Positions 11,539 to 55,182 of a DNA stretch of 64,000 nt are shown piece after piece. A model generated the notes under the pieces. The model was not told the DNA's origin and did not search any database. It saw nothing but the letters and a program-made list of their open reading frames with translations. Both the position numbers and the translations under genes were made by a program. Source of the DNA: Campylobacter sp. VBCF_01 NA2 (lineage in GTDB: Bacteria > Campylobacterota > Campylobacteria > Campylobacterales > Campylobacteraceae); the NCBI RefSeq assembly GCF_027797205.1, contig NZ_CP115607.1, positions 1,541,288 through 1,605,287 of the forward strand, in the 5' to 3' direction. Every line of letters begins with the position of its first letter. The first letter of the stretch is position 1.

Positions 11539-11540
11539 GC

Positions 11541-11580
11541 AAAATTTGGCTAGGATTTTCTAGCCAAATTTTAAAATTCT
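11541..11580 (+). terminator. Rho-independent terminator-like hairpin after the torA-like gene
   Basis: aaaatttggctag-gatttt-ctagccaaatttt followed by an A/T run. Confidence 0.6.
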
Positions 11581-11599
11581 ACAAAATTTTGCAAATTTC

Positions 11600-11645
11600 A
11601 AAATTCCGCTATCGCAAATTTGAAATACTGCCCCGAAATTTTGCT
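11600..11645. repeat. Dispersed intergenic repeat family B, copy 2
   Basis: aaaattccgctatcgcaaatttgaaatactgccccgaaatttt. A partial related segment follows at 11686-11712 (acttcgcaagcttataata). Confidence 0.8.
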
Positions 11646-11761
11646 TTTTAAAATCCAACGAAATTTCTACGAATTCCTCAATTTACAAAGTTACTTCGCA
11701 AGCTTATAATAAATCAATACAAAATTTTGCACCACATAATCAAAATTTCAACCCATTTTAA

Positions 11762-11774
11762 GGGGGGGGGGGGG
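11762..11774 (+). repeat. Homopolymeric G13 tract immediately upstream of a TAGAAT -10-like hexamer (candidate phase-variable promoter)
   Basis: Sequence ttaaGGGGGGGGGGGGGtagaata. Lies 37 bp upstream of the ATG of the 11811 ORF. Confidence 0.9.
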
Positions 11775-11810
11775 TAGAATAAAACTTTATTTTTTTTCAA
11801 GGAGAAAACT

Positions 11811-12098
11811 ATGGATGAAGAGCTACACTTAGACTGCCCATTTTGTGGCAAGGACGACATCAAATACGGAGTATCAGTTTGCAGTGGTTGCCAAGCTGAG
11901 ATTAGATATGGTGTATCGTGGGCTCCAACTTTAATTTTGGGTGTAATATTGTTTATCGTAGGTGCTGCTATGGGTAGCGCTATTGGTGGCCTTGTTTGTA
12001 TCGGTGGATTGGTCGGTATCGTCATAGGTGCATATAGATTTTTACAAAATTTAAGCTATAAAAAAGGTCCTAAATTTTTCAGACGAGAATTTCGTTAA
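11811..12098 (+). CDS. Small membrane protein with N-terminal zinc-ribbon (CPFCG...CSGC) and glycine-zipper TM
   Basis: RBS aaggagaaaact. Has a CxxC...CxxC motif and a GxxxG-rich hydrophobic segment. Lies downstream of a G13 tract. Confidence 0.55.
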   Translation: MDEELHLDCPFCGKDDIKYGVSVCSGCQAEIRYGVSWAPTLILGVILFIVGAAMGSAIGGLVCIGGLVGIVIGAYRFLQNLSYKKGPKFFRREFR

Positions 12099-12105
12099 TT
12101 CTATG

Positions 12106-12145
12106 TTTATTTGTAGGTATCCAAACCTACAAATAATCGTTTATG
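12106..12145 (+). terminator. Hairpin terminator-like structure after the small zinc-ribbon ORF
   Basis: tttatttgtaggt-atccaa-acctacaaataa followed by tcgttta. Confidence 0.5.
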
Positions 12146-12163: not shown

Positions 12164-12511
12164 ATGGCTTATTATGACATGTGGGGAAATCGGTATGAAA
12201 AAGTTAGCAGTGGTGGAGGCATTCTTGGATTACTTCTCATAGTTGGTTTTATATGGCTTGTTTCAGGCGATAACACACCCTCTAATACACCGACAGATAA
12301 CAAGGTTATCAAAAGTATAAATCTAAGCAATAGAGAAAAAACCATGCAAATCCAGCGAATTCTTATCAAAAACGGCTATAAACTCAAAGCCGATGGCGTT
12401 TTTGGGAAAAAGACAATCAGCGCTGCAAAGAAATTTACAGGGCTAAATTCTGCGGATTTAAACACACTTTATATTGCTGTTAAAAATAAAGCAGACGGCA
12501 AAAAGAATTAA
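12164..12511 (+). CDS. Membrane-anchored peptidoglycan-binding-domain protein
   Basis: N-terminal TM segment and a C-terminal PG_binding_1-like motif (IQRILIKNGYKLKADGVFGKKTISAAKKF). Confidence 0.6.
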   Translation: MAYYDMWGNRYEKVSSGGGILGLLLIVGFIWLVSGDNTPSNTPTDNKVIKSINLSNREKTMQIQRILIKNGYKLKADGVFGKKTISAAKKFTGLNSADLNTLYIAVKNKADGKKN

Positions 12512-12520
12512 TATAATATC

Positions 12521-12584
12521 ATAGGGTGGGCATTTTGCCCACCATAAGGTTGCCGAATTTTCGGTGCAAAACGCCCACCCTACA
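12521..12584. repeat. Dispersed palindromic repeat family A, copy 2 (long hairpin: atagggtgggcattttgcccaccat ... gcccaccctac)
   Basis: The internal gtgggcattttgcccac is a perfect palindrome. The outer tagggtgggc/gcccaccctac arms pair. Located between convergent/tandem genes. Confidence 0.75.
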
Positions 12585-12607
12585 ACACTTCTAACCAAAG
12601 GATGGAT

Positions 12608-13471
12608 ATGAAAAATTTATTTTCATTTATGTTGGCTAGTGCGCTGTGCGCGGTGCTAGCAGGATGTGGTGGCGACGATAGCCAGTCTAGTGCAAATGCT
12701 GGGGGCGAGACCGAGAAACCAGCGCAAGAAGTCGCTCAAAAACCAATCGAGAGATCGGTAGAAAAGCCAAAAGACCCAGCGCTTGAAAAAGCAGAAAAAG
12801 AGGTCGAGGCGATGAGTTTGAAGGATTTTGTCGTTTTGTTCGAAAACGATGGTTGCTTTAAGGTAGATACGAACCAAACCGCCAAACTCGCTTGTGAAGG
12901 CAAATTTGAACCATATGCAAAGGAACTTTATAGTTCACAAAGCAGTCTTAAAAATGGTGCAGATAATGTACTATATTTATATTATGAGTTGGATTTTATA
13001 AATGATTATTTTAAAAAAAATAAAAAGCTAGGCTCTGTTTCGGATATGCTGGCTAGTAAGTCAAATATATCAGATATTAACAAAAACATATGGCGAAGGG
13101 CTGGTGTTATATTTATTAATGGGTATGGTAAGTATCTAATCATACGAGATAGTGATATCGATGTTGAAAATTCTACAATTACGCTTTCTGAAATGGACCA
13201 AGATATATACGATAAAGTTGATAAAATAAGTAAAGACTTGGGAGACACATATTTCATCACTTCAGATCATTATTTCTCTAATTTTCACAACAAAAAGCTT
13301 GCTCGCGAGGCCGAATTAAAGGATATATACCGAGAGTTAGCCTATGAAAAAGGCGAGCTAAAAGGTGCGGTTTTTGAGATAAAAGATGGTAAATATGTAG
13401 TTAAATTTCCACTTGCAGATGCGATGAAGGCAAATATTAAAAAAGCAAGGCAAATATTAAAAAAGCTATGA
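12608..13471 (+). CDS. Hypothetical lipoprotein
   Basis: Lipobox LAGCGG. RBS aaagga. No recognisable domain. AT-richer than the core. Confidence 0.55.
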   Translation: MKNLFSFMLASALCAVLAGCGGDDSQSSANAGGETEKPAQEVAQKPIERSVEKPKDPALEKAEKEVEAMSLKDFVVLFENDGCFKVDTNQTAKLACEGKFEPYAKELYSSQSSLKNGADNVLYLYYELDFINDYFKKNKKLGSVSDMLASKSNISDINKNIWRRAGVIFINGYGKYLIIRDSDIDVENSTITLSEMDQDIYDKVDKISKDLGDTYFITSDHYFSNFHNKKLAREAELKDIYRELAYEKGELKGAVFEIKDGKYVVKFPLADAMKANIKKARQILKKL

Positions 13472-13632
13472 AAAGGTGAGCACTAGTAAAATAGCTCATA
13501 TAAATTTCACTTTGCAAGCCGTGGTTTAAACTGCGGTTTGCAACTCGTAATAGAAATTTTAAATTTCAAATTGCTTTTATAAATTTTTGAAATTTAAAAT
13601 TTCAACCAAAAGCTATTTTGTGTTGCAGTTTC

Positions 13633-13676
13633 GTAGGGTGGGCATCCTTGCCCGCCCTAAATTAAAATTTTGCCCA
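13633..13676. repeat. Dispersed palindromic repeat family A, copy 3
   Basis: cgtagggtgggcatccttgcccgccctaaattaaaattttgccc. Confidence 0.75.
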
Positions 13677-13792
13677 TATCTTAAAATTTGAAATTTCAGA
13701 CGCAGTATCTACAAAGCAAAATTTAACGAGAGTAAAATTTAAAGAAAAGCAAAATTTGGAAAAATCCAAATTTTGCTAGGAATTTAAAAAGA

Positions 13793-14290
13793 TTAAGGCA
13801 CGAAAATATTCCCACCGGCGCGCGGATTTAGCGGATCGTCGCCGTATTTGTTAGCTCCGTCGGTGCCTTTTAAAATCGTAGAGATAAAAATAAAAATTAT
13901 AAGCCCCACAGCAACAAATAAAAACAGCATAGCCAAAATTCTAATTCCATCAGCAAACATTATCCCAAGCACGCATAAAAGAAAAATTGCGCCAAAATAC
14001 CACCCGCTGATATCTCTATCATGCAGTCTTCTCCACAAAACCGCAAATGATGGCACAAGCAAGCCCAAAGCAACCACGCTAGCTACGATTCCTATGACCT
14101 CTGGGTTGCCGTTTTTGTCAAAGCCCAAAACGATATTTGTGCCAAGCACAGCGTCGATTACGGAGGTTGCGACATTTACTAAAACGCTAAAAAGGTAAAA
14201 CCACCAATATTCGCTTCTGCTAGCCCTGCCAGAAAATGTGGCGTATTTTTGTTTGAGGCAAACGCTAATCGCCTCGCCAAAACTCATCAT
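13793..14290 (-). CDS. DUF805-family inner membrane protein
   Basis: SGRASRSEYWWFYLF motif characteristic of DUF805 (YhaH-like), with several TM helices. Confidence 0.7.
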   Translation of the reverse strand: MMSFGEAISVCLKQKYATFSGRASRSEYWWFYLFSVLVNVATSVIDAVLGTNIVLGFDKNGNPEVIGIVASVVALGLLVPSFAVLWRRLHDRDISGWYFGAIFLLCVLGIMFADGIRILAMLFLFVAVGLIIFIFISTILKGTDGANKYGDDPLNPRAGGNIFVP

Positions 14291-31120: not shown

Positions 31121-31208
31121 AGACAGGTGTCCGAGTGGTCGAAGGAGCACGCCTGGAACGCGTGTGAGGTGCAAGCCTCCGAGGGTTCGAATCCCTTCCT
31201 GTCTGCCA
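31121..31208 (+). tRNA. tRNA-Ser (GGA anticodon, long variable arm)
   Basis: Acceptor stem agacagg/cctgtct, anticodon loop ccuGGAac, long extra arm, T-loop ggttcgaatcc, 3' CCA encoded. Confidence 0.8.
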
Positions 31209-35399: not shown

Positions 35400-35487
35400 T
35401 GGCCGGGAGATAGGGATTCGAACCCCAGGAGGTGTTACCCTCAACGGTTTTCAAGACCGCCGCTTTCGACCGCTCAGCCATCTCCCG
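35400..35487 (-). tRNA. tRNA-Ser (TGA anticodon)
   Basis: Reverse complement gives ggagagatggctgagcgg... with anticodon loop cuUGAaa, a long variable arm and T-loop ggttcgaatcc, ending CCA. Confidence 0.8.
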
Positions 35488-35493
35488 ATAGAA

Positions 35494-35646
35494 TTATTCT
35501 GTTTTTTCGCTGACCCACTCTGCGCCGTTATGAACCTTTTCCTTCGTCCATTGACCAGCGTTTTTTGAGTCTTGTTTCACGCCTTGCCATGTGTTTGAAC
35601 ACCCGCTAAACGCCAAAACTAAAAGTATCGTAACTATATATTTCAT
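35494..35646 (-). CDS. Small lipoprotein (about 50 aa)
   Basis: MKYIVTILLVLAFSGCSN lipobox. Short mature peptide. Wedged between tRNA genes. Start chosen to avoid overlap with tRNA-Cys. Confidence 0.45.
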   Translation of the reverse strand: MKYIVTILLVLAFSGCSNTWQGVKQDSKNAGQWTKEKVHNGAEWVSEKTE

Positions 35647-35664
35647 AGACTCTCCTTGTTGTTT

Positions 35665-35739
35665 TGGAAGCGACACCCGGATTCGAACCGGGGATCAAGG
35701 CTTTGCAGGCCCATGCCTTACCGCTTGGCTATGTCGCCA
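35665..35739 (-). tRNA. tRNA-Cys (GCA anticodon)
   Basis: Reverse complement ggcgacatagccaagcggtaaggc...cuGCAaa...ggttcgaatccgg gtgtcgct-t-cca. U73 discriminator typical of Cys. Confidence 0.8.
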
Positions 35740-35756
35740 CACTAAGCCGTTTTTGG

Positions 35757-35846
35757 TGGTGCCCGGAGCCGGACTTGAACCGGCACGGAAGAAAAAATTC
35801 CGAGGGATTTTAAGTCCCTTGCGTCTACCAATTCCGCCATCCGGGC
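35757..35846 (-). tRNA. tRNA-Leu (TAA anticodon, long variable arm)
   Basis: Reverse complement gcccggatggcggaattggtagacgc...cuUAAaa...long extra arm...ggttcaagtccggc tccgggc-a-cca. Confidence 0.8.
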
Positions 35847-35870
35847 ACATTTTCAACACATACAAAATCA

Positions 35871-35946
35871 TGGAGCGGGAAACGAGAGTCGAACTCGCGA
35901 CATCAACCATGGCAAGGTTGCGCTCTACCACTGAGCTATTCCCGCG
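35871..35946 (-). tRNA. tRNA-Gly (GCC anticodon)
   Basis: Reverse complement gcgggaatagctcagtggtagagcgcaacc uuGCCau ggttg...ggttcgactc...tcccgctcca. Confidence 0.8.
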
Positions 35947-36060
35947 TCAAAAACGAAAGCTGATTTTAGCAAATTAAAACTTAAAATTTTATTTTATTTG
36001 CAAAATTTCTCTTTTTTAAATTCATTATAAGCTAAAAAGTGTAAAATTACAGAGCTTTTT

Positions 36061-36136
<76 letters not shown>

Positions 36137-36887: not shown

Positions 36888-37695
36888 AGAAAAACGATTT
36901 ATAAACATTGTCGAGTAGGAAGTATTTTTTATCAATCGTGCCCTTGTAAAACGGCTCAAAGGTCTCGTTATAGGCTTTTGTGAAAAATCCCTCTTTGCTC
37001 AGAGCGATGATTTGCTCGTTTAAAAATTCAAGCAAACTTGTGTTACCTTTTTGGATTGCGATTGATAGAAAAACGGTGTTGCCAAGGTTTGAGAGTTTGA
37101 CCTCCATTGTGGGGTCAAAAATCGGATAAGCATAGACAAAAAGGTTGTTATTGACATAGCCGTCAAGTTCGCCATTTTTGACTTTTTTATAGCAATCGAC
37201 GCTGTCGTTGCAATAAGTGATAGGAATCCCCTCTTTATTCAAAAATGCTTCGCCTGTGGTTTTAAGCAATGCGCCGATTTTTTTGCCTTTTAAATCCAAG
37301 ACAGACTTGATGTCGCTACCTTTTCTGGTGAGAAGACCCAAATTTACAGTAAAATACGGAGCCGTGAAGTCGGCTAAATGGGCGCGCTCTGGCGTTACAG
37401 ACACAGCGGCAACTATCATATCAGCTTTATTTTCTTGTAAAAGCGGAAAACGCACATCGTTGGTAACGCCCATGAGGCTTATGTGACCTTGTTTCTCGCC
37501 AAAAATCCTTTTTGCCAAAATTTCGGCAAGCTCGACCTCAAATCCCTCGAATTTACCATTGACAAGCTCGCCAAATGGCGGTTCAGCGTCATACACGCCG
37601 ATACGGATTTCACCTCGCGCTCTAATCTCATCGAGCGAATACGAAAATGCGCTTGTCGCAAGGACAGCCAATGCCAAAAGAAACTTTTTCATGGT
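36886..37695 (-). CDS. Amino-acid ABC transporter periplasmic substrate-binding protein (family 3, PEB1-like)
   Basis: Signal peptide MKKFLLALAVLATSAFS and an SBP_bac_3-type fold (GIDVELA/ASVTPERA-like motifs). The longer ORF to 37749 is probably an over-extension. Confidence 0.75.
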   Translation of the reverse strand, partial: TMKKFLLALAVLATSAFSYSLDEIRARGEIRIGVYDAEPPFGELVNGKFEGFEVELAEILAKRIFGEKQGHISLMGVTNDVRFPLLQENKADMIVAAVSVTPERAHLADFTAPYFTVNLGLLTRKGSDIKSVLDLKGKKIGALLKTTGEAFLNKEGIPITYCNDSVDCYKKVKNGELDGYVNNNLFVYAYPIFDPTMEVKLSNLGNTVFLSIAIQKGNTSLLEFLNEQIIALSKEGFFTKAYNETFEPFYKGTIDKKYFLLDNVYKSFF

Positions 37696-37757
37696 ATTTC
37701 CTTTTTGTAGTTTTGCGCAAATCTGCGCCTGGCAAATTGAAATTTGCAACTTTTGCG

Positions 37758-37765
37758 GGGGGGGA
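37758..37765 (-). repeat. Homopolymeric C8 tract (on coding strand) about 60 bp upstream of the substrate-binding-protein gene
   Basis: Plus strand gcGGGGGGGGattt. Lies in the leader/promoter region of the minus-strand SBP gene. Confidence 0.8.
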
Positions 37766-37916: not shown

Positions 37917-38915
37917 ATGTTTTCATCGTTTTTCAAAAGTCCAAAATGGCGATTGTTGGCCTGGGGCGGACTAATTTTTATACTCGGTATTAATTTATTT
38001 CAAACCATTTTAAATGTCAAATTTAACGAGTGGTATAGGGCGTTTTACGATATGGGTGGCGAGATCGACAAGCACACGATTGATGAGTTTTATGAGGCTA
38101 TGCTTTTGTTTTTGTGGCTTGCGATGTGGTTTATAGCAGCGGCAGTTTCGGAGCGCTATATCACGCGCGTATGGGTGCTAAAATGGCGAGAGGCGATGAC
38201 ATTTTCATACATTGGCTTTTGGCGCAGGGTAGAGCGCGACATAGAGGGTAGCTCACAGCGTATCCAAGAAGATATTTATCGTTTCACCAAAACCCTCGAA
38301 GATGTCGGCATGCGAATTGTCTATGCCTTTATGACGCTATTTGCGTTTATTCCGATTTTATGGGGGCTTAGTAGCGGGATAAATTTGCCCTTTATCAAGG
38401 ATATTCCGGGCTCTCTTGTTTGGATTGCGCTAGCTGTGAGCGTGGGTGGGCTTGGCGTGTCGTGGTTCGTGGGACGCTACCTGCCACGCCTAGAATACAA
38501 CAACCAAAAAGTCGAAGCAGCCTTTCGAAAAGAGCTAGTTTTTGCCGAGGAGGACAAGGCGAATTACGGAAGCGAGGAGAAACTCATTTCGCTTTTTGAC
38601 AAGCTTAAATTTAACTACCACAAGCTATTTTTGCACTATTTGTATTTCGATACTTGGCTTCACACTTACTCGCAAATCCTTGTCATCGTGCCATATCTCA
38701 TCATGGGGCCAGGGCTTTTTACCAAGGTAATCACGCTTGGCGTGCTAATCCAAACGGCAAATGCCTTTAATAAAGTGCGCCAAAGTTTTAGCGTATTTAC
38801 GGAGAATTGGACGACGATAACCGAACTTCGCTCAATCCACATGAGGCTTAGCGAGTTTGAGAAAAACATAGGATATGATCCAAAACTAGCCTTACAGGCT
38901 GAATTTAGGGCGTAA
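37917..38915 (+). CDS. sbmA: SbmA/BacA-family inner-membrane peptide transporter
   Basis: Clear similarity to the E. coli SbmA pattern (MFSSFFKSPKW..., SQRIQEDIYRFTKTLE, NQKVEAAFRKELVFAEED, NWTTITELRSIHMRLSEFE). Confidence 0.8.
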   Translation: MFSSFFKSPKWRLLAWGGLIFILGINLFQTILNVKFNEWYRAFYDMGGEIDKHTIDEFYEAMLLFLWLAMWFIAAAVSERYITRVWVLKWREAMTFSYIGFWRRVERDIEGSSQRIQEDIYRFTKTLEDVGMRIVYAFMTLFAFIPILWGLSSGINLPFIKDIPGSLVWIALAVSVGGLGVSWFVGRYLPRLEYNNQKVEAAFRKELVFAEEDKANYGSEEKLISLFDKLKFNYHKLFLHYLYFDTWLHTYSQILVIVPYLIMGPGLFTKVITLGVLIQTANAFNKVRQSFSVFTENWTTITELRSIHMRLSEFEKNIGYDPKLALQAEFRA

Positions 38916-44066: not shown

Positions 44067-44972
44067 ATGGCGTATGAGAAATTTAGTTTAGGCGAATTTA
44101 ACGGACGGCGAATTTTTGAGATTTTGCTGGGTTTGGGACACGATATGAAAGGCGCTCAAAGGCTGTGTGATAAGGGCAGGGTGCTGGACGGCTCTGGCGT
44201 GGTAATGGCAAAAAACAGCGTGGCAAATGGCGAAATATTTTTGATAGATTATAAATGTGAGCCAAAGGGAGTGCGCGCGATTTTTGAATGCGAAGAATTT
44301 GGGGTTTTTGATAAACCTAGCGGAGTGCTTTCTCACCCAAACGGCAGGCATTGCAAATATTCACTTTATGATGAAATTTGGTCGCTTTATGGTCGCTCTG
44401 CGGCGGTCGTGCATAGGCTCGATAAAGAGACAAGCGGCGTGATACTGGTCTCAAAAAATTTGGTTAGTTTAAATGCGTTAAAAATGCTTTTTGAAAATAG
44501 GGCGGTGAAAAAATCATATTTTGCTTTGGCGAGCGGGAGAGTGGAGCGAGAATTTGTAATCGATGAGCCAATAGGCGAGAGTTTGGAAACTGACGAAGTA
44601 ATGATTAAAATGCGAATTTGCGAAAACGGCAAAAAAGCGATAACTGAGATTTATCCGATAGAATATTTTAGCGAATTTAATGCGACTTTGATTCGAGCCG
44701 TGCCGCTGACGGGAAGACAGCACCAAATTCGTTTGCATTTGTTTCATGTGAAACACAAAATTTTAGGGGACCCGCTTTACGGCACAGACACGGCGACTTT
44801 TGAAGCGATTTTGGACGAGAAATTAAGCGTGAGTGAGCGGATAAATTTAACAGGCGCTTCTAGGCTTTGTCTGCATGCGGCAAATTTGAGTTTTGAATTT
44901 AACGGACAAATTTACGATATTCAAACGAAGGCTGATTTTAAAAGCGAGTTTTTGAAAGCGTTAAAATTTTGA
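44067..44972 (+). CDS. RluA-family pseudouridine synthase
   Basis: HRLDKETSGVILVSK catalytic Asp motif. No N-terminal S4 domain. Confidence 0.75.
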   Translation: MAYEKFSLGEFNGRRIFEILLGLGHDMKGAQRLCDKGRVLDGSGVVMAKNSVANGEIFLIDYKCEPKGVRAIFECEEFGVFDKPSGVLSHPNGRHCKYSLYDEIWSLYGRSAAVVHRLDKETSGVILVSKNLVSLNALKMLFENRAVKKSYFALASGRVEREFVIDEPIGESLETDEVMIKMRICENGKKAITEIYPIEYFSEFNATLIRAVPLTGRQHQIRLHLFHVKHKILGDPLYGTDTATFEAILDEKLSVSERINLTGASRLCLHAANLSFEFNGQIYDIQTKADFKSEFLKALKF

Positions 44973-45107
44973 AACAAAAGAGATATAAAAATATTGCTTC
45001 AATAAATTCTGTATTTATTACAAATTCCTAAATTTGATAAACTGATTGGTATTATGAAAAAACGGTAGCTAAACCAGCTAAAATTTGCAAATTTAAGCAA
45101 ATTTTAG

Positions 45108-45120
45108 GGGGGGGGGGGGT
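45108..45120 (+). repeat. Homopolymeric G13 tract immediately upstream of a TAGAAT -10-like hexamer (second copy of the same promoter architecture)
   Basis: Sequence tttaGGGGGGGGGGGGGtagaata. Lies 52 bp upstream of the ATG of the 45172 lipoprotein gene. Confidence 0.9.
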
Positions 45121-45171
45121 AGAATACGGAAATTGAATTGTGTCAAATAATTTTATTAAAAAGGATTTTCT

Positions 45172-45609
45172 ATGAAAAAATCATATTTTATTTATGGAGC
45201 AGTCTTATCTTTTGTTTTGGTTGGTTGTAATTATACTCCGCCACCGAAACACTCAGACATATATTTAAATGATGAAGCTAAAAGCGTTTTACTTAGCGAA
45301 GGAACTATGGTAAATTGTCGTGTATTAGGACAGGTTGAAGGTAAAGATGAAAGATATAAAGGAGAATATCCGCCTGCGATTTACACGCAACTTGATGAAA
45401 ATGCAAAAAATGATTTGAGAAACAATGCTTCTGTGTATAATAAACAAGATAGATTGATAAGCGTTAGAATTTTAAATAAAGAAATTCATTGCTTTGACCC
45501 AAGACTTGGCTGGACAAATTGCAGTAGCGCATATATGAAAGCATACCCTAATAGTGCAGTAAAATATGTAAAATATAAAGGTGAAATTTTAGATTGTGGT
45601 GAAAGATAA
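45172..45609 (+). CDS. Hypothetical lipoprotein (145 aa)
   Basis: Lipobox LVGCNY. RBS aaaaaggatttt. Lies downstream of a G13 tract. AT-rich. Confidence 0.55.
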   Translation: MKKSYFIYGAVLSFVLVGCNYTPPPKHSDIYLNDEAKSVLLSEGTMVNCRVLGQVEGKDERYKGEYPPAIYTQLDENAKNDLRNNASVYNKQDRLISVRILNKEIHCFDPRLGWTNCSSAYMKAYPNSAVKYVKYKGEILDCGER

Positions 45610-45737
45610 ATTTAAAAATTTGCGAATTTTTATTTTAGAATTCGCAAATTTACTCTTTTTTTTCATTTAAAACTACATAAAAAATTCCACAAATGCCGAT
45701 TATAGCGACGATTGCGATAAAAACTACTTCGATTATA

Positions 45738-46808
45738 TCAAGGGCGGTCATTTTTGCTTCTTTCTTTGAGTTGTCCGCACGCAGCACTTATGTCAAGCCC
45801 CTTGCTTTGGCGAATCGTGCAGGTTACGCCATGCGCACTGAGATAATCTTGGAATTTCACCATATTTTCGGTGCTTGGGCGCAGATACGGGCTTCCTTCG
45901 TGTGGGTTAAAATATATCAAATTCACCTTTGCTTTTATGCCGTGAAGTAGCTTCACAAGGGTTTTTGCGTCGTTTATGCTATCATTTACGCCGCCCATTA
46001 CGAGATACTCGAACATCACTCGTTTTCGCATATCTATGGGGAAATTTCGCACGGCGTCCATAACCGAAGCTATGTTGTAGGCTTTGTTTATCGGCATTAG
46101 CTTGGCACGAAGCTCATCGGTTACGGCGTGAAGCGAAATGGCAAGTAAAACGCCCAGATCCATTTCACCCAGCTTTTTTATCTGTGTAGCTAGACCGCTC
46201 GTGCTGATAGTCTGACGACGCGGAGCAATCGCTAAGCCGTCATTTTCTTTTAAAATTTGCACAGCTTTTGAGACATTTGCTAGGTTGTCAAGCGGTTCGC
46301 CCATACCCATATATACGACATTGACGCGTCTTTCGTAAGGGATTTGGTTTGCGATTTTTATGTATAAAATTTGCCCGATGATTTCACCTGCTGTGAGATT
46401 TCGCACAAATCCGCCTTTGGCAGTTAGGCAAAACGCACAGCCCATTTTGCAACCTACTTGCGAACTAACGCAGATTGTGTATCTTGCATGGCGTGAAATT
46501 TTGCCGTTTTCATCGGCGACTTCGTCTTTCATAGGAAGCAAAACGCTTTCTATGGTTTTGCCGTCTTTTAGCTCGAAAAGATATTTTTTGCTTCCGTCGA
46601 TACTCTCTTCGCATTTTGCGCATTTTACGGGGTCTAAATAGAAATTTTCGCTTAAATTTGCTCTTAATTCCTTTGGTAAATTTAGCATTTCATCGAAATT
46701 TTTAACACCTTTTTTGTAAATCCACTCGTAAATTTGCTTGGCTCTAAATTTTGGCGTTACAAGCTCGGATAGTTCATCAAGTGTGAAATCTAGGATATTT
46801 TTCAAATT
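45738..46808 (-). CDS. rlmN: 23S rRNA/tRNA adenine-C2 methyltransferase RlmN (radical SAM)
   Basis: CxxxCxxC radical-SAM motif (CKMGCAFC) and a downstream catalytic Cys. The six-frame ORF is over-extended at the N-terminus. A likely TTG start (LKNILDF...) is preceded by aaaaggaat. Confidence 0.8.
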
Positions 46809-52750: not shown

Positions 52751-53929
52751 ATGATTATTATAGATATTGAAGAAATTGATTTTCAAGAAATTTTAAATCA
52801 AATTTCATCTTATTCAGACGATGCGTTTAAACTAGCATTACAAAATATTTTTAATAAAAAAATATCAAAAGTAATTGAAAAACAAGTAGATTGTTTTGAT
52901 ATTGTTGTTAATACATATATTAGTTCTGAAATTTCATTTGCTGATATAAAAAAGGTTGGCGGCTTACCCATTGATGACATAAAAATATTTTTTAAAAGAA
53001 AAGATATAGATAGCCTAGTAGATATAAATTTCCCCAATGAATATAAAAGTGGTTTTTATGTCAAACAGGATAAAAAAATTTTGTATATTGAGCCTATGCC
53101 TTATAAAATAGAGCCAATAGTTCAAAAACGAGCAATAAAATATAAAAAGCAAATACAAAATATTATTATTCCAAGCGAAAAATTTATTATAAATTCAAAT
53201 ATTATTAAAAATTGTTTATGTGAATATAAAAATATTTTTCCTATTTTTAAATCTTGTGTTAGAGAATATACTATGTGGTATTGTTGCATTTGTGGAAAAG
53301 AATACATTTGTTCTTGTTTTAAAAATGCAATACAAATAATGCAAAAAAAATTTATTGGTGGCTCTATTACACAAAATTTAAAATATGATTTACAAAAGAC
53401 TACTTTTATGGATAATATTTGTCATATGTGTAGAAAAATTCCATCTTCCCATATTTTTTATCTATATGGTGGCAAAATTGGAAAATATTATCTTCCATAT
53501 ATTATGCGTGAGCAATATGAAAAAAATATTGATTATAAAGAAGCAGAAAATAATATTAGAGTAGAATTGGGTATTCCTAAGATTGGCGAAGGTTGGGTTT
53601 CTCAAACACAACTTTACTACACGATTAACTTTTTGTTTCCAGAATATGAAATTCAACGAGAAGCTAGTCCAGAGTGGCTTGGGCGACAAAGATACGATAT
53701 ATATTTTCCAAATGAAAAACTTGCAATAGAATATCAAGGAAAACAACACTATGAGCCTGTAAATTTATTCGGCGGAGAAGAGGGCTATAAAAACACAATA
53801 GAAAGAGACAAAGAAAAATTAAAAAAATCAAAAGAAAATGGTGTCGATATTATATACATATCATACAAGGATAAATTCGATGAAAATACGCTATATAAAC
53901 GCATAAAAAAATATTTGGAAAATAAATAA
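52751..53929 (+). CDS. Cys-rich protein with C-terminal DUF559/Vsr-like PD-(D/E)xK endonuclease motif (AT-rich islet gene 1)
   Basis: Central Cys cluster (CLCEYKN..C..WYCCICGKEYICSC...CHMC). C-terminal D-x-YFP...KLAIEYQGKQHYEP pattern matching the DUF559/Vsr-like endonuclease core. Very AT-rich codon usage. Confidence 0.6.
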   Translation: MIIIDIEEIDFQEILNQISSYSDDAFKLALQNIFNKKISKVIEKQVDCFDIVVNTYISSEISFADIKKVGGLPIDDIKIFFKRKDIDSLVDINFPNEYKSGFYVKQDKKILYIEPMPYKIEPIVQKRAIKYKKQIQNIIIPSEKFIINSNIIKNCLCEYKNIFPIFKSCVREYTMWYCCICGKEYICSCFKNAIQIMQKKFIGGSITQNLKYDLQKTTFMDNICHMCRKIPSSHIFYLYGGKIGKYYLPYIMREQYEKNIDYKEAENNIRVELGIPKIGEGWVSQTQLYYTINFLFPEYEIQREASPEWLGRQRYDIYFPNEKLAIEYQGKQHYEPVNLFGGEEGYKNTIERDKEKLKKSKENGVDIIYISYKDKFDENTLYKRIKKYLENK

Positions 53930-55182
53930 TGGAATTAGCAATATTCTCGCTTAAATTTAGTTTTATATTTGGAATAAATGGCAACAGTGATAAACCATTT
54001 TGTGATTTCGTCAAAATTTTTGAATTAAAAATAGATAAAGAAAATAGAATTGTTGAATTAATTAGAGAACAGACATATAGTAAGGAATTAAAAAATAAAT
54101 TAAGCATTTTTAGAGACAAGTATGTAGAACAAATACCACGACTGCACCAATTGGTTCAAATTTTTCAAAAATTAGAAGAAAATGAATTATTTTATGTATA
54201 TTCTAGAACAGAATTTGATACATTTGATACGGCTAAAATAATTGAACTCACAAAAGAACTCAACTTGGCTAATAATAATAATTCTTGTGAAGTTATACCA
54301 AAAGAATGCGAAAATATCGTAAAAAATTATAATATGATTATTTTTTGTTTTAATGAAAATAGAAAAATCAAAATAGGACATGGCTTAAAAAAAGATAGAG
54401 TTTGCAGGTTTTGTGGTAAAAAATATGGCGAAACTACTTTTAATTCCGAAGCTCACGCAATATCAGAAGCTCTTGGAAATAAAAAATTAATTATAAACGA
54501 TGAGTGTGATGAGTGTAACAAATTTTTTGATAAAAATATAGAAAAAGATTTTATTATATTTAATGATTTTTTTAGAGTATTTTATGAAATAGAAAATAAA
54601 AAACATAAAACACCAAATATTAAAAATAATGAATTTAATTTATCAAATAAAGGCGATAATAACATTTTTATTAGTGTAAAAGATAATTTTGACGGCAATA
54701 ATTTACATTTGCATTTTGGAAATGGAAAGCCGCAAAATTTATATAAAGCATTATGTAAATTTGCAATAAGCGTAATAGATGAAAAATATTTATATAATTT
54801 GCAAGAAACCATACAATGGATTATGGGCAAAAAAGAAACAAAAAAACTTCCAAAAGTAATCGAAATTTTTAATCCTTACAATGTTGTAAAAGAGCCTAAT
54901 ATAGTTGTTTTTATTAGAAAAAACAATAGTGATTTACCTTTTATGTTTGCCACGCTGTCTTTTACTGCTATTGCATATACTTTTATAATACCTTTTTCAA
55001 ACAAAGATAAATTGGATTATACAATCGAAAATAATTATAGTAAATTTTTAAATTTATTGCCTTTTTCTGAAAACAAAAATATAAAATTTCGCGATTTTTC
55101 TAGTAATGAAGAACAAGAATTTAATACAAATATAAATTTTGAGCAAAGAAAAATCGATGAAAATCACAAATTTAAGGCTTAG
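53929..55182 (+). CDS. Zinc-finger protein with HNH-like nuclease motif (AT-rich islet gene 2)
   Basis: CRFCGKKYGETTFNSEAHAISEALGN...NDECDECN. A CxxC-H-N-CxxC arrangement resembling the HNH beta-beta-alpha-Me finger. Start overlaps the gene 1 stop (TAATG). Confidence 0.55.
   Translation: MELAIFSLKFSFIFGINGNSDKPFCDFVKIFELKIDKENRIVELIREQTYSKELKNKLSIFRDKYVEQIPRLHQLVQIFQKLEENELFYVYSRTEFDTFDTAKIIELTKELNLANNNNSCEVIPKECENIVKNYNMIIFCFNENRKIKIGHGLKKDRVCRFCGKKYGETTFNSEAHAISEALGNKKLIINDECDECNKFFDKNIEKDFIIFNDFFRVFYEIENKKHKTPNIKNNEFNLSNKGDNNIFISVKDNFDGNNLHLHFGNGKPQNLYKALCKFAISVIDEKYLYNLQETIQWIMGKKETKKLPKVIEIFNPYNVVKEPNIVVFIRKNNSDLPFMFATLSFTAIAYTFIIPFSNKDKLDYTIENNYSKFLNLLPFSENKNIKFRDFSSNEEQEFNTNINFEQRKIDENHKFKA

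Follow-up and report, generated by a model that had tools for sequence, protein, structure and literature searches.

A hypervariable poly-G tract in the putative core promoter of a predicted lipoprotein gene of Campylobacter sp. VBCF_01 NA2

The subject of this analysis is a run of 13 guanines (G13) upstream of a gene encoding a predicted lipoprotein of 145 amino acids (aa) in a 64,000-nucleotide (nt) stretch of contig NZ_CP115607.1 of Campylobacter sp. VBCF_01 NA2, referred to below as the window. Results of our comparison with related genomes indicate that the poly-G tract is the one hypervariable element within otherwise conserved DNA, and its position is consistent with a location in the core promoter of the downstream gene, between the -35 and the -10 elements. 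Probably, the tract is a hypermutable repeat of a sigma-70 promoter, and changes of its length by slipped-strand mispairing would tune or switch the transcription of the lipoprotein gene. We designate this site locus 2, and a sister site in the same window, with a second G13 tract upstream of a gene for a 95-aa protein, locus 1. The initial annotation of the window had pointed to G13-TAGAATA upstream of the 145-aa lipoprotein gene (ATG at 45172) and to a second tract of this kind, and both are indeed present in the sequence.

Rarity and length variation of the poly-G tracts

The tract of locus 2 occupies positions 45107-45119 of the plus strand, within the sequence ...gcaaattttaGGGGGGGGGGGGGtagaatacgg..., and is flanked by ...AAATTTAAGCAAATTTTA on the 5' side and by TAGAATACGG on the 3' side, with TAGAATA immediately following the last G. 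The second tract, of locus 1, lies on the plus strand at 11762-11774, between ...CCCATTTTAA and TAGAATAAAA. Its context reads ...cccattttaaG13tagaataaaa..., and the ATG of the 95-aa open reading frame (ORF) is located 36 nt further on. These two tracts are the only runs of nine or more G's in the 64 kb of the window. In dinucleotide-preserving shuffles the G9 pattern was expected 0.05 times, and none of the 100 shuffles reached the observed count; below the two G13 tracts, the spectrum of G/C runs in the window consists of one G8 and then a few 6-mers. Both tracts exceed the poly-G/C length of at least 7-8 at which homopolymers of Campylobacter are considered hypermutable, the published threshold for repeat tracts of this genus being at least 7 (PMC4965091).

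The single G8 run (37757-37764) is located in a divergent intergenic region, between a minus-strand gene (likely ATG near 37692), the product of which starts with a signal-peptide-like sequence, and a plus-strand gene for a membrane protein (ATG at 37917). As no TAnAAT hexamer follows the run, its design is unlike that of both G13 promoters. It may be a shorter contingency tract.

The length of the tract of locus 2 differs between strains. While the window carries G13-TAGAAT, the orthologous site of GCA_027737225.1 (L001), which is 98.2% identical over 6.4 kb, carries G14-TAGAAT, and that of the related strain JMF_01 NE2 (GCA_027737365.1, L185) carries G15-TAAAAT. The Logan contig L002, 83-91% identical to the window, has G13-TAGAAT. 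A more distant homologue (L004, 66% amino-acid identity) is preceded by A7G7-TAAACT, 35 nt 5' of its ATG. In the case of contig L003, which is about 80% identical, the contig end falls exactly at TAGAAT, as would be expected if the assembly broke on the G run; as a sign of high-frequency length change this break is only suggestive.

At locus 1, the run is G13, G14, G10, G14, and G15 across five genomes, including GCA_027737225.1 (L125), in an alignment of about 300 nt that is otherwise 98% identical, and two additional contigs of metagenome-assembled genomes (MAGs) carry G10. When the coding flanks are included, the identity of the aligned stretch is 93-95%. As a control, we used 20 metagenome contigs that encode distant homologues of the 95-aa protein; they have no G run longer than 5, and their promoter region shows no length change. 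Thus, both loci exhibit length polymorphism between conserved flanks (G13/G14/G15 at locus 2 and G10/G13/G14/G15 at locus 1), and the expectation of the initial annotation that such variation would be found is borne out.

Anatomy of the putative promoters

The older, experimentally derived promoter consensus of C. jejuni comprises the -35 element TTTAAGTnTT, the -16 element TTTTTTTG, and the -10 box TATAAT, with a spacer of 15-19 nt, mostly 17-18 nt, measured from the end of the -35 10-mer (PMC3824568). Published transcriptome maps of C. jejuni show instead an extended -10 box, TGxTATAAT, and on its 5' side a periodic A/T-rich pattern in place of a strong -35 box; 5' untranslated regions (5'UTRs) were mostly of 20-50 nt, and the ribosome-binding site (RBS) was AAGGA (PMC3656092).

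The sequence around the tract of locus 2 can be fitted to this scheme. A -35-like element, TTTAAGCAAA (45092-45101, plus strand), ends 18 nt before the putative -10 box TAGAAT (45120-45125) at a tract length of G13, and is conserved in L001, L002, and L185. The ATG follows 52 nt after the -10 box, and the interval includes a predicted RBS, AAGGA (45161-45165), that matches the C. jejuni consensus. The counterparts at locus 1, also on the plus strand, are a weaker -35-like element of the TTnAA type, TTCAACCCAT (11747-11756), whose distance from the -10 box is likewise 18 nt when the tract is G13, and TAGAAT at 11775-11780. At both loci TTnAA starts exactly 28 nt before the -10 box, which gives the 18-nt spacer at G13, and the orthologue series G10-G15 corresponds to spacers of 15-20 nt. 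The tract itself would form the 3' part of the spacer, its final G's occupying the position of the G of an extended -10 box.

Substitutions in the -10 hexamer of orthologues are confined to position 3, being TAGAAT/TATAAT at locus 1, where TATAAT occurs in the G10 orthologues, and TAGAAT/TAAAAT at locus 2. Judging from both its placement and its evolution, TAGAAT behaves as a -10 box. A transcription start 6-8 nt 3' of it would give a 5'UTR of about 24 nt at locus 1 and of about 40 nt at locus 2, in line with the lengths of 20-50 nt in C. jejuni. The distance of 36-52 nt between the -10 box and the ATG at the window loci compares with 31-66 nt in other Campylobacterota examples, which have an AAGGA-type RBS.

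Among the ordinary candidate promoters of the window, which form a crude control set, TTnAAG is present at -35 in a single case out of 66, namely at locus 2. A generic scan for sigma-70 promoters of the TTGACA type did not call the G-tract promoters, and its matches were no more frequent than in shuffled sequences; such a scan misses these promoters because the -35 element of Campylobacter is different.

The intergenic region upstream of the 95-aa gene at locus 1 (11539-11810, 270 nt) is 98% identical across the five genomes, as compared with 67-78% identity of the 95-aa proteins, and is rich in phased AAATTT(T)GCAAATTT-like motifs. Regulatory information may thus extend beyond the core promoter in this region.

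The same layout in other genomes

A scan for G≥9-TAGAAT, in which the tract adjoins TAGAAT by construction and each species is represented by one genome, identified at least 120 loci; its matches neither delimit a regulon nor provide frequencies free of bias. About 23 loci among the matches listed are from Campylobacterota, and many of these have the layout TTTAAGC-N6-12-Gn-TAGAAT at 31-66 nt before a gene. Nearly all products of the downstream genes begin with a signal peptide, a lipobox, or a membrane helix. The TTAAG motif is concentrated 25-29 nt before the -10 box, where it is present at 13 of 27 independent Campylobacterota G-tract sites among the matches listed. In other phyla, TTGAC[AT] accompanies 35 of the 93 G≥9-TAGAAT sites among the matches listed, as compared with 0.02 per site in the control, and the spacer length is 14-20 nt in 34 of these 35. 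These observations suggest that a G tract ending at a -10 box is a common and independently evolved design.

A further example of length variation is provided by five species-level Campylobacter MAGs (L012, L038, L085, L086, and L115), which share one orthologous promoter (…gctcaaattca-Gn-tagaattaca…) with tracts of G10, G13, G14, G10, and G15, respectively. It fronts the same small membrane protein of 84 aa (61 aa in L086). A scan of metagenomes for ATTTTA-N0-12-G8-TAGAATA added more examples, all of them unrelated; orthologues of the two loci of the window were not among them. Four other tracts of at least eight G's were found in the fetched Campylobacterota loci; from their flanks they appear to be intragenic, and they are too few to test whether such tracts as a rule abut a -10 box.

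Nine metagenome contigs of about 30% GC (L130, L138, L142, L144, L147, L150, L151, L154, and L160) contain a multi-copy promoter family that reads 'ttttacatagattttataggac-G8-11-tagaataatg…agattaactaa' and is present in up to three copies per contig. It fronts paralogous genes whose products begin with MIATTGLG or MMATTGIG, and which look like paralogous phase-variable genes of a low-GC organism.

Proposed mechanism and alternative explanations

In the mechanism that we propose, slipped-strand mispairing at replication would lead to the gain or loss of single G's, each step changing the -35/-10 spacer by 1 bp. The -35-like element and the A/T-rich DNA on its 5' side would thereby be shifted and rotated with respect to the -10 box. 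Descendants would then differ in the level of lipoprotein transcription, in an ON/OFF or a graded manner, heritably and reversibly. By the C. jejuni convention, G13 corresponds to an 18-nt spacer, the commonest class, which would place the window strain at or near maximal expression. According to published spacer statistics, G12-G13 would be optimal and G14-G15 progressively lower, while G10 would give one of the shortest spacers allowed. Locus 1, of the same geometry, would switch independently. Possibly, the G's that replace the usual T-rich -16 region make such promoters dependent on the -35 element and in this way sensitive to spacer length; the rarity of TTnAAG in the ordinary promoters of the window and its frequency in G-tract promoters fit this idea. 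For both loci we infer where transcription starts, that expression depends on the length of the tract, which length is ON, and that switching takes place within a population. The phase-variable promoter proposed in the initial annotation is thus retained in so far as the tract is placed in a putative promoter, is hypermutable between strains, and is followed by a -10-like TAGAAT, and is abandoned as regards a duplicated module and coordinated switching.

Several observations weigh against this mechanism. Differences of one nucleotide in homopolymer length between assemblies can include errors of consensus calling. The -35-like element of locus 1 (TTCAAC) is poor. Deletion of the -35 region reduced the activity of one Campylobacter promoter about threefold and did not abolish it (PMC3824568), and a periodic A/T pattern replaces the -35 box in 89% of C. 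jejuni promoters (PMC3656092). Because the -35 region is weakly used in Campylobacter, changes of tract length may have a modest or graded effect and not act as an ON/OFF switch. In addition, a second -10-like hexamer is located exactly 51 nt upstream of the tract at each locus (TATAAT at 11705-11710 and TATTAT at 45050-45055). At locus 1 it is preceded, at a distance of 17 nt, by TTTACA, which makes an 11/12 match to TTGACA-17-TATAAT. Some transcripts could therefore start upstream and contain the G run in their leader. The paired hexamers could represent tandem promoters, shared ancestry, or chance.

The weak use of the -35 region is also the basis of an explanation in which the tract is hypermutable but of little or no consequence for expression: transcription would rely mainly on the extended -10 box and be constitutive, with neutral variation of tract length. 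In C. jejuni, conservation of the -35 region is weak and the region is not essential (PMC3824568, PMC3656092), and the near absence of TTnAAG from the -35 position of the candidate promoters of the window, apart from locus 2, fits this explanation as well. On the other hand, TTTAAG at the right distance in about half of the Campylobacterota G-tract promoters listed (the 13 of 27 given above) is what would be expected if these promoters depended on it. There is, moreover, a strong avoidance of long G tracts elsewhere, with only two runs exceeding G8 in 64 kb, and their placement upstream of genes for envelope proteins recurs in many lineages. A neutral tract is, in our opinion, unlikely.

A somewhat less likely explanation is that the G run is a part of the mRNA leader of a transcript initiated further upstream and acts after transcription. 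It could be a target of a C/U-rich small RNA, as in the case of H. pylori RepG and tlpB, or could alter the structure or translation of the leader, and in either mode several G-tract genes could be co-tuned. The hexamers 51 nt upstream of both tracts, with the good promoter match at locus 1, agree with this possibility, and so does the absence, at locus 2, of a predicted terminator separating the tract from the gene upstream of it. Moreover, the phylum offers an established case of a variable G-repeat under RepG-type control (PMC8295292). However, the tract lies upstream of the best -10 box and would be absent from the predicted main transcript. In L002, an extra acetyltransferase gene is present upstream, and the homology with the window starts only about 27 nt before the tract; although the DNA beyond this point is unrelated to that of the window, the tract, TTTAAGC, and the -10 box are retained. 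This homology boundary indicates that the conserved unit consists of the core promoter, the gene, and the terminator, and does not include DNA further upstream. TAnAAT adjoins the tract in every orthologue, with variation at position 3 only, and the -35 element is found at promoter-like spacing across many taxa. Promoter-like matches in the upstream regions in question are no commoner than in shuffled sequences, and an Rfam scan covering the 64-kb window, as opposed to the rest of the genome, found tRNAs only and no small-RNA family.

An extension of the leader explanation, which we consider very unlikely, is that G-leader transcripts started upstream are recognized by a trans-acting factor specific for G-repeats, either a RepG-like C/U-rich small RNA or a protein, that co-tunes envelope genes with G tracts. 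If true, it would result in the coordinated behavior imagined in the initial annotation. A milder version is that TTTAAG-N-Gn-TAnAAT may be a phylum-wide convergent layout reserved for cassettes of small accessory envelope proteins.

Relationship between the two loci

The spacer-slippage mechanism would apply to both loci alike, and the question arises whether their promoters have a common origin. When anchored at the tract, the two promoters have in common ATTTTA on the 5' side and TAGAATA on the 3' side. Downstream, the identity between them is at the chance level (12/53). Upstream, the in-register identity is 29/60, as compared with 18.6 ± 3.3 in mononucleotide shuffles and 18-19 ± 4-6 for other candidate promoters of the window; it arises solely in the register that brings together the hexamers located 51 nt upstream. 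As a sign of homology, this resemblance is suggestive at most.

In the initial annotation the two loci were regarded as sharing a duplicated, reusable module with an identical junction. That both are copies of one mobile or duplicated module, ATTTTA-G13-TAGAATA, would account for the same immediate flanks and tract length in the window, as well as for the weak upstream similarity and the -10-like hexamer at the same distance. Nevertheless, it is highly improbable, as nothing is similar 3' beyond TAGAATA and the promoters are not clearly homologous outside the two short motifs. The -35 elements are different (TTTAAGC vs. TTCAACC), the junction is not fixed, being G10-TATAAT or G15-TAAAAT in orthologues whose tracts range from G10 to G15, and the same layout is present at unrelated promoters in other species. 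From these comparisons, the two loci are best regarded as separate examples of a general promoter design that has evolved repeatedly, and not as a copied module. Their shared look would reflect a general layout of Campylobacterota sigma-70 promoters, which recurs at many unrelated genes and species.

The proposal of coordinated switching of the two loci is not supported either. Tract lengths at locus 1 and locus 2 are 13/13 in the window, 14/14 in GCA_027737225.1, and 14/15 in JMF_01 NE2. The first two pairs are suggestive of coupled lengths, but the third strain breaks the pattern, and slippage at two unlinked tracts is by its mechanism independent. The matched additional G at both loci of GCA_027737225.1 could be due to chance or to a consensus-calling effect.

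Homopolymer lengths are error-prone, and with one assembly longer by one G at both loci it may be asked whether the long runs are sequencing or assembly errors of a shorter run; this is hardly credible, since runs of G10-G15 occupy the same positions in at least six independent assemblies or metagenome contigs, where they are internal to the contig and bounded by unique, conserved flanks, so that the tract is real and the artefact that the initial annotation had allowed for is ruled out.

Genes downstream of the tracts and other features of the window

The gene of locus 2 (45172-45609, plus strand) forms a single-gene unit that ends with a predicted hairpin (45616-45651) with a T run, resembling an intrinsic terminator (45616-45661, plus strand). 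Its product starts with MKKSYFIYGAVLSFVLVGC, with the lipobox LVGC within this sequence, and contains four conserved cysteines. We regard it as a putative, divergent member of the DUF4156 family. While its own score against Pfam DUF4156 (PF13698) is 18 bits, below the cut-off of 28.9 bits, an exhaustive search identified about 25 remote relatives of similar size, and all 26 aligned members match PF13698 at E ≤ 0.01, the best E-value being 1.1e-10. The lipobox residues G18 and C19 are nearly invariant, and the four cysteines and an A-x-NDLRN-x-A motif are common to the family. The AlphaFold (AF2) model of the protein, with a pLDDT confidence score of 85.7, has a small alpha/beta fold, and a fold search of the model against PDB gave no match at E ≤ 0.001. 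The GC content is 32% in the gene and 22% in the upstream spacer (tract excluded), as compared with 41.4% in the window and 42-43% in the two flanking genes, in agreement with the AT-richness of the gene and its flank noted in the initial annotation. By these sequence features, the 145-aa protein is a predicted accessory, low-GC envelope lipoprotein.

A region of an uncultured Campylobacter MAG (L036, 5909-6317), syntenic with positions 44067-46018 of the window, has other contents in the same slot between the pseudouridine synthase gene and rlmN: two genes and, in addition, one for an unrelated membrane protein of 120 aa that is preceded by a G9-TAGAAT promoter of its own. This slot looks like a hotspot for cassettes of phase-variable envelope genes.

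The 95-aa protein encoded at locus 1 (11811-12098, plus strand) has a zinc-ribbon-like motif, CPFC...CSGC, in its N-terminal part, while the C-terminal half is hydrophobic, and its gene is followed by a terminator-like hairpin (12107-12136). Thus, the statement of the initial annotation that small envelope proteins are encoded downstream of both tracts agrees with our predictions of a DUF4156-type lipoprotein and a zinc-ribbon membrane protein. An antisense ORF of 103 codons (11714-12025), in which the tract would encode a run of prolines, was rejected as spurious, as it lies opposite the conserved 95-aa gene; frameshifting changes of the tract would affect its C-terminal end only.

Directly 3' of locus 1, a segment of about 1.6 kb (12176-13796) contains genes for two proteins, a PG_binding_3 protein of 115 aa and a lipoprotein-like one of 289 aa (LAGC). 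The related genomes L127 and L128 lack this segment and have DUF805/TM2 genes directly adjoining, which indicates an accessory insertion.

Elsewhere in the window, positions 52751-55182 form a sharp low-GC island (24.5% vs. 41% in the window) with two adjacent genes, for products of 392 and 417 aa. No Pfam match was obtained for the first product, whereas the second contains an endonuclease domain of the HNH_5 type (E = 5.6e-08). The island looks like a horizontally acquired two-gene cassette, possibly with a role in defence. Five tRNA genes form a cluster, with members on both strands, at 35403-36133, and two more are present at 31121 and 58270.

Significance and comparison with known systems

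If the proposed mechanism is confirmed, two small envelope proteins, a DUF4156-type lipoprotein and a zinc-ribbon membrane protein, would be added to the phase-variable products of a Campylobacter lineage that has received little study. The natural series of tract lengths, G10-G15, with its -10 variants is suited to the study of how a Campylobacter promoter responds to spacer length. A G tract placed at the -10 box may also be useful in the automatic annotation of phase-variable promoters, while the current understanding of phase variation is unchanged.

In Neisseria meningitidis, homopolymers between the -35 and -10 elements, namely poly-G of porA and poly-C of opc and fetA, undergo slippage that changes the spacer and thereby the transcription of surface proteins. 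The G/C homopolymer between the two elements is common to that system and to the loci described here. However, the -35 element there is of the TTGACA type, as opposed to TTTAAG with A/T periodicity in the Campylobacter loci, which belong to another phylum. The tract of the latter adjoins the -10 box and is longer (G10-G15), and the effect on expression, demonstrated in N. meningitidis, is a prediction here. The poly-T tract of Helicobacter pylori sabA reportedly acts as a 'rheostat', in which a homopolymer beside the -35 element causes graded, length-dependent transcription via the alignment of promoter elements. It resembles the loci of the window in the position of a homopolymer next to the core promoter, and differs from them in being a poly-T tract beside the -35 element and not a poly-G tract adjoining the -10 box.

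Counterparts are also known from the same genus. Intergenic poly-G tracts were found in 20% of Campylobacter phase-variable gene groups with the use of PhasomeIt (PMC6321876), and C. jejuni NCTC11168 has three of them, including those of cj0565 and cj1321; for intergenic tracts the ON lengths assigned were arbitrary (PMC4965091). The repeat type and the presumed mechanism are the same as in our case, whereas in the catalogues the tracts were assigned to promoters by proximity only, and both the species and the downstream genes are different here. Within the phylum, promoter-associated tracts of G13-G14 were described in H. canadensis (HCAN_0075, HCAN_0234, and HCAN_0714), with reads of G10-G17 (PMC2823697). 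They are similar to the window loci in length, in their location in predicted promoters, and in length heterogeneity, which was however observed within one culture there and is seen between strains only here; the downstream genes differ as well. In the case of H. pylori tlpB and RepG (PMC8295292), a variable G-repeat of another member of Campylobacterota is likewise located upstream of a coding region, but that repeat is in a transcribed leader and acts through a small RNA, while the tracts of the window are upstream of the -10 box. Poly-G tracts of promoters are thus already catalogued in Campylobacter and Helicobacter, and the anatomy presented here, with a tract adjoining the -10 box, TTTAAG at a distance of 25-30 nt, and cassettes of small envelope genes, is a useful description of two further examples rather than a new principle.

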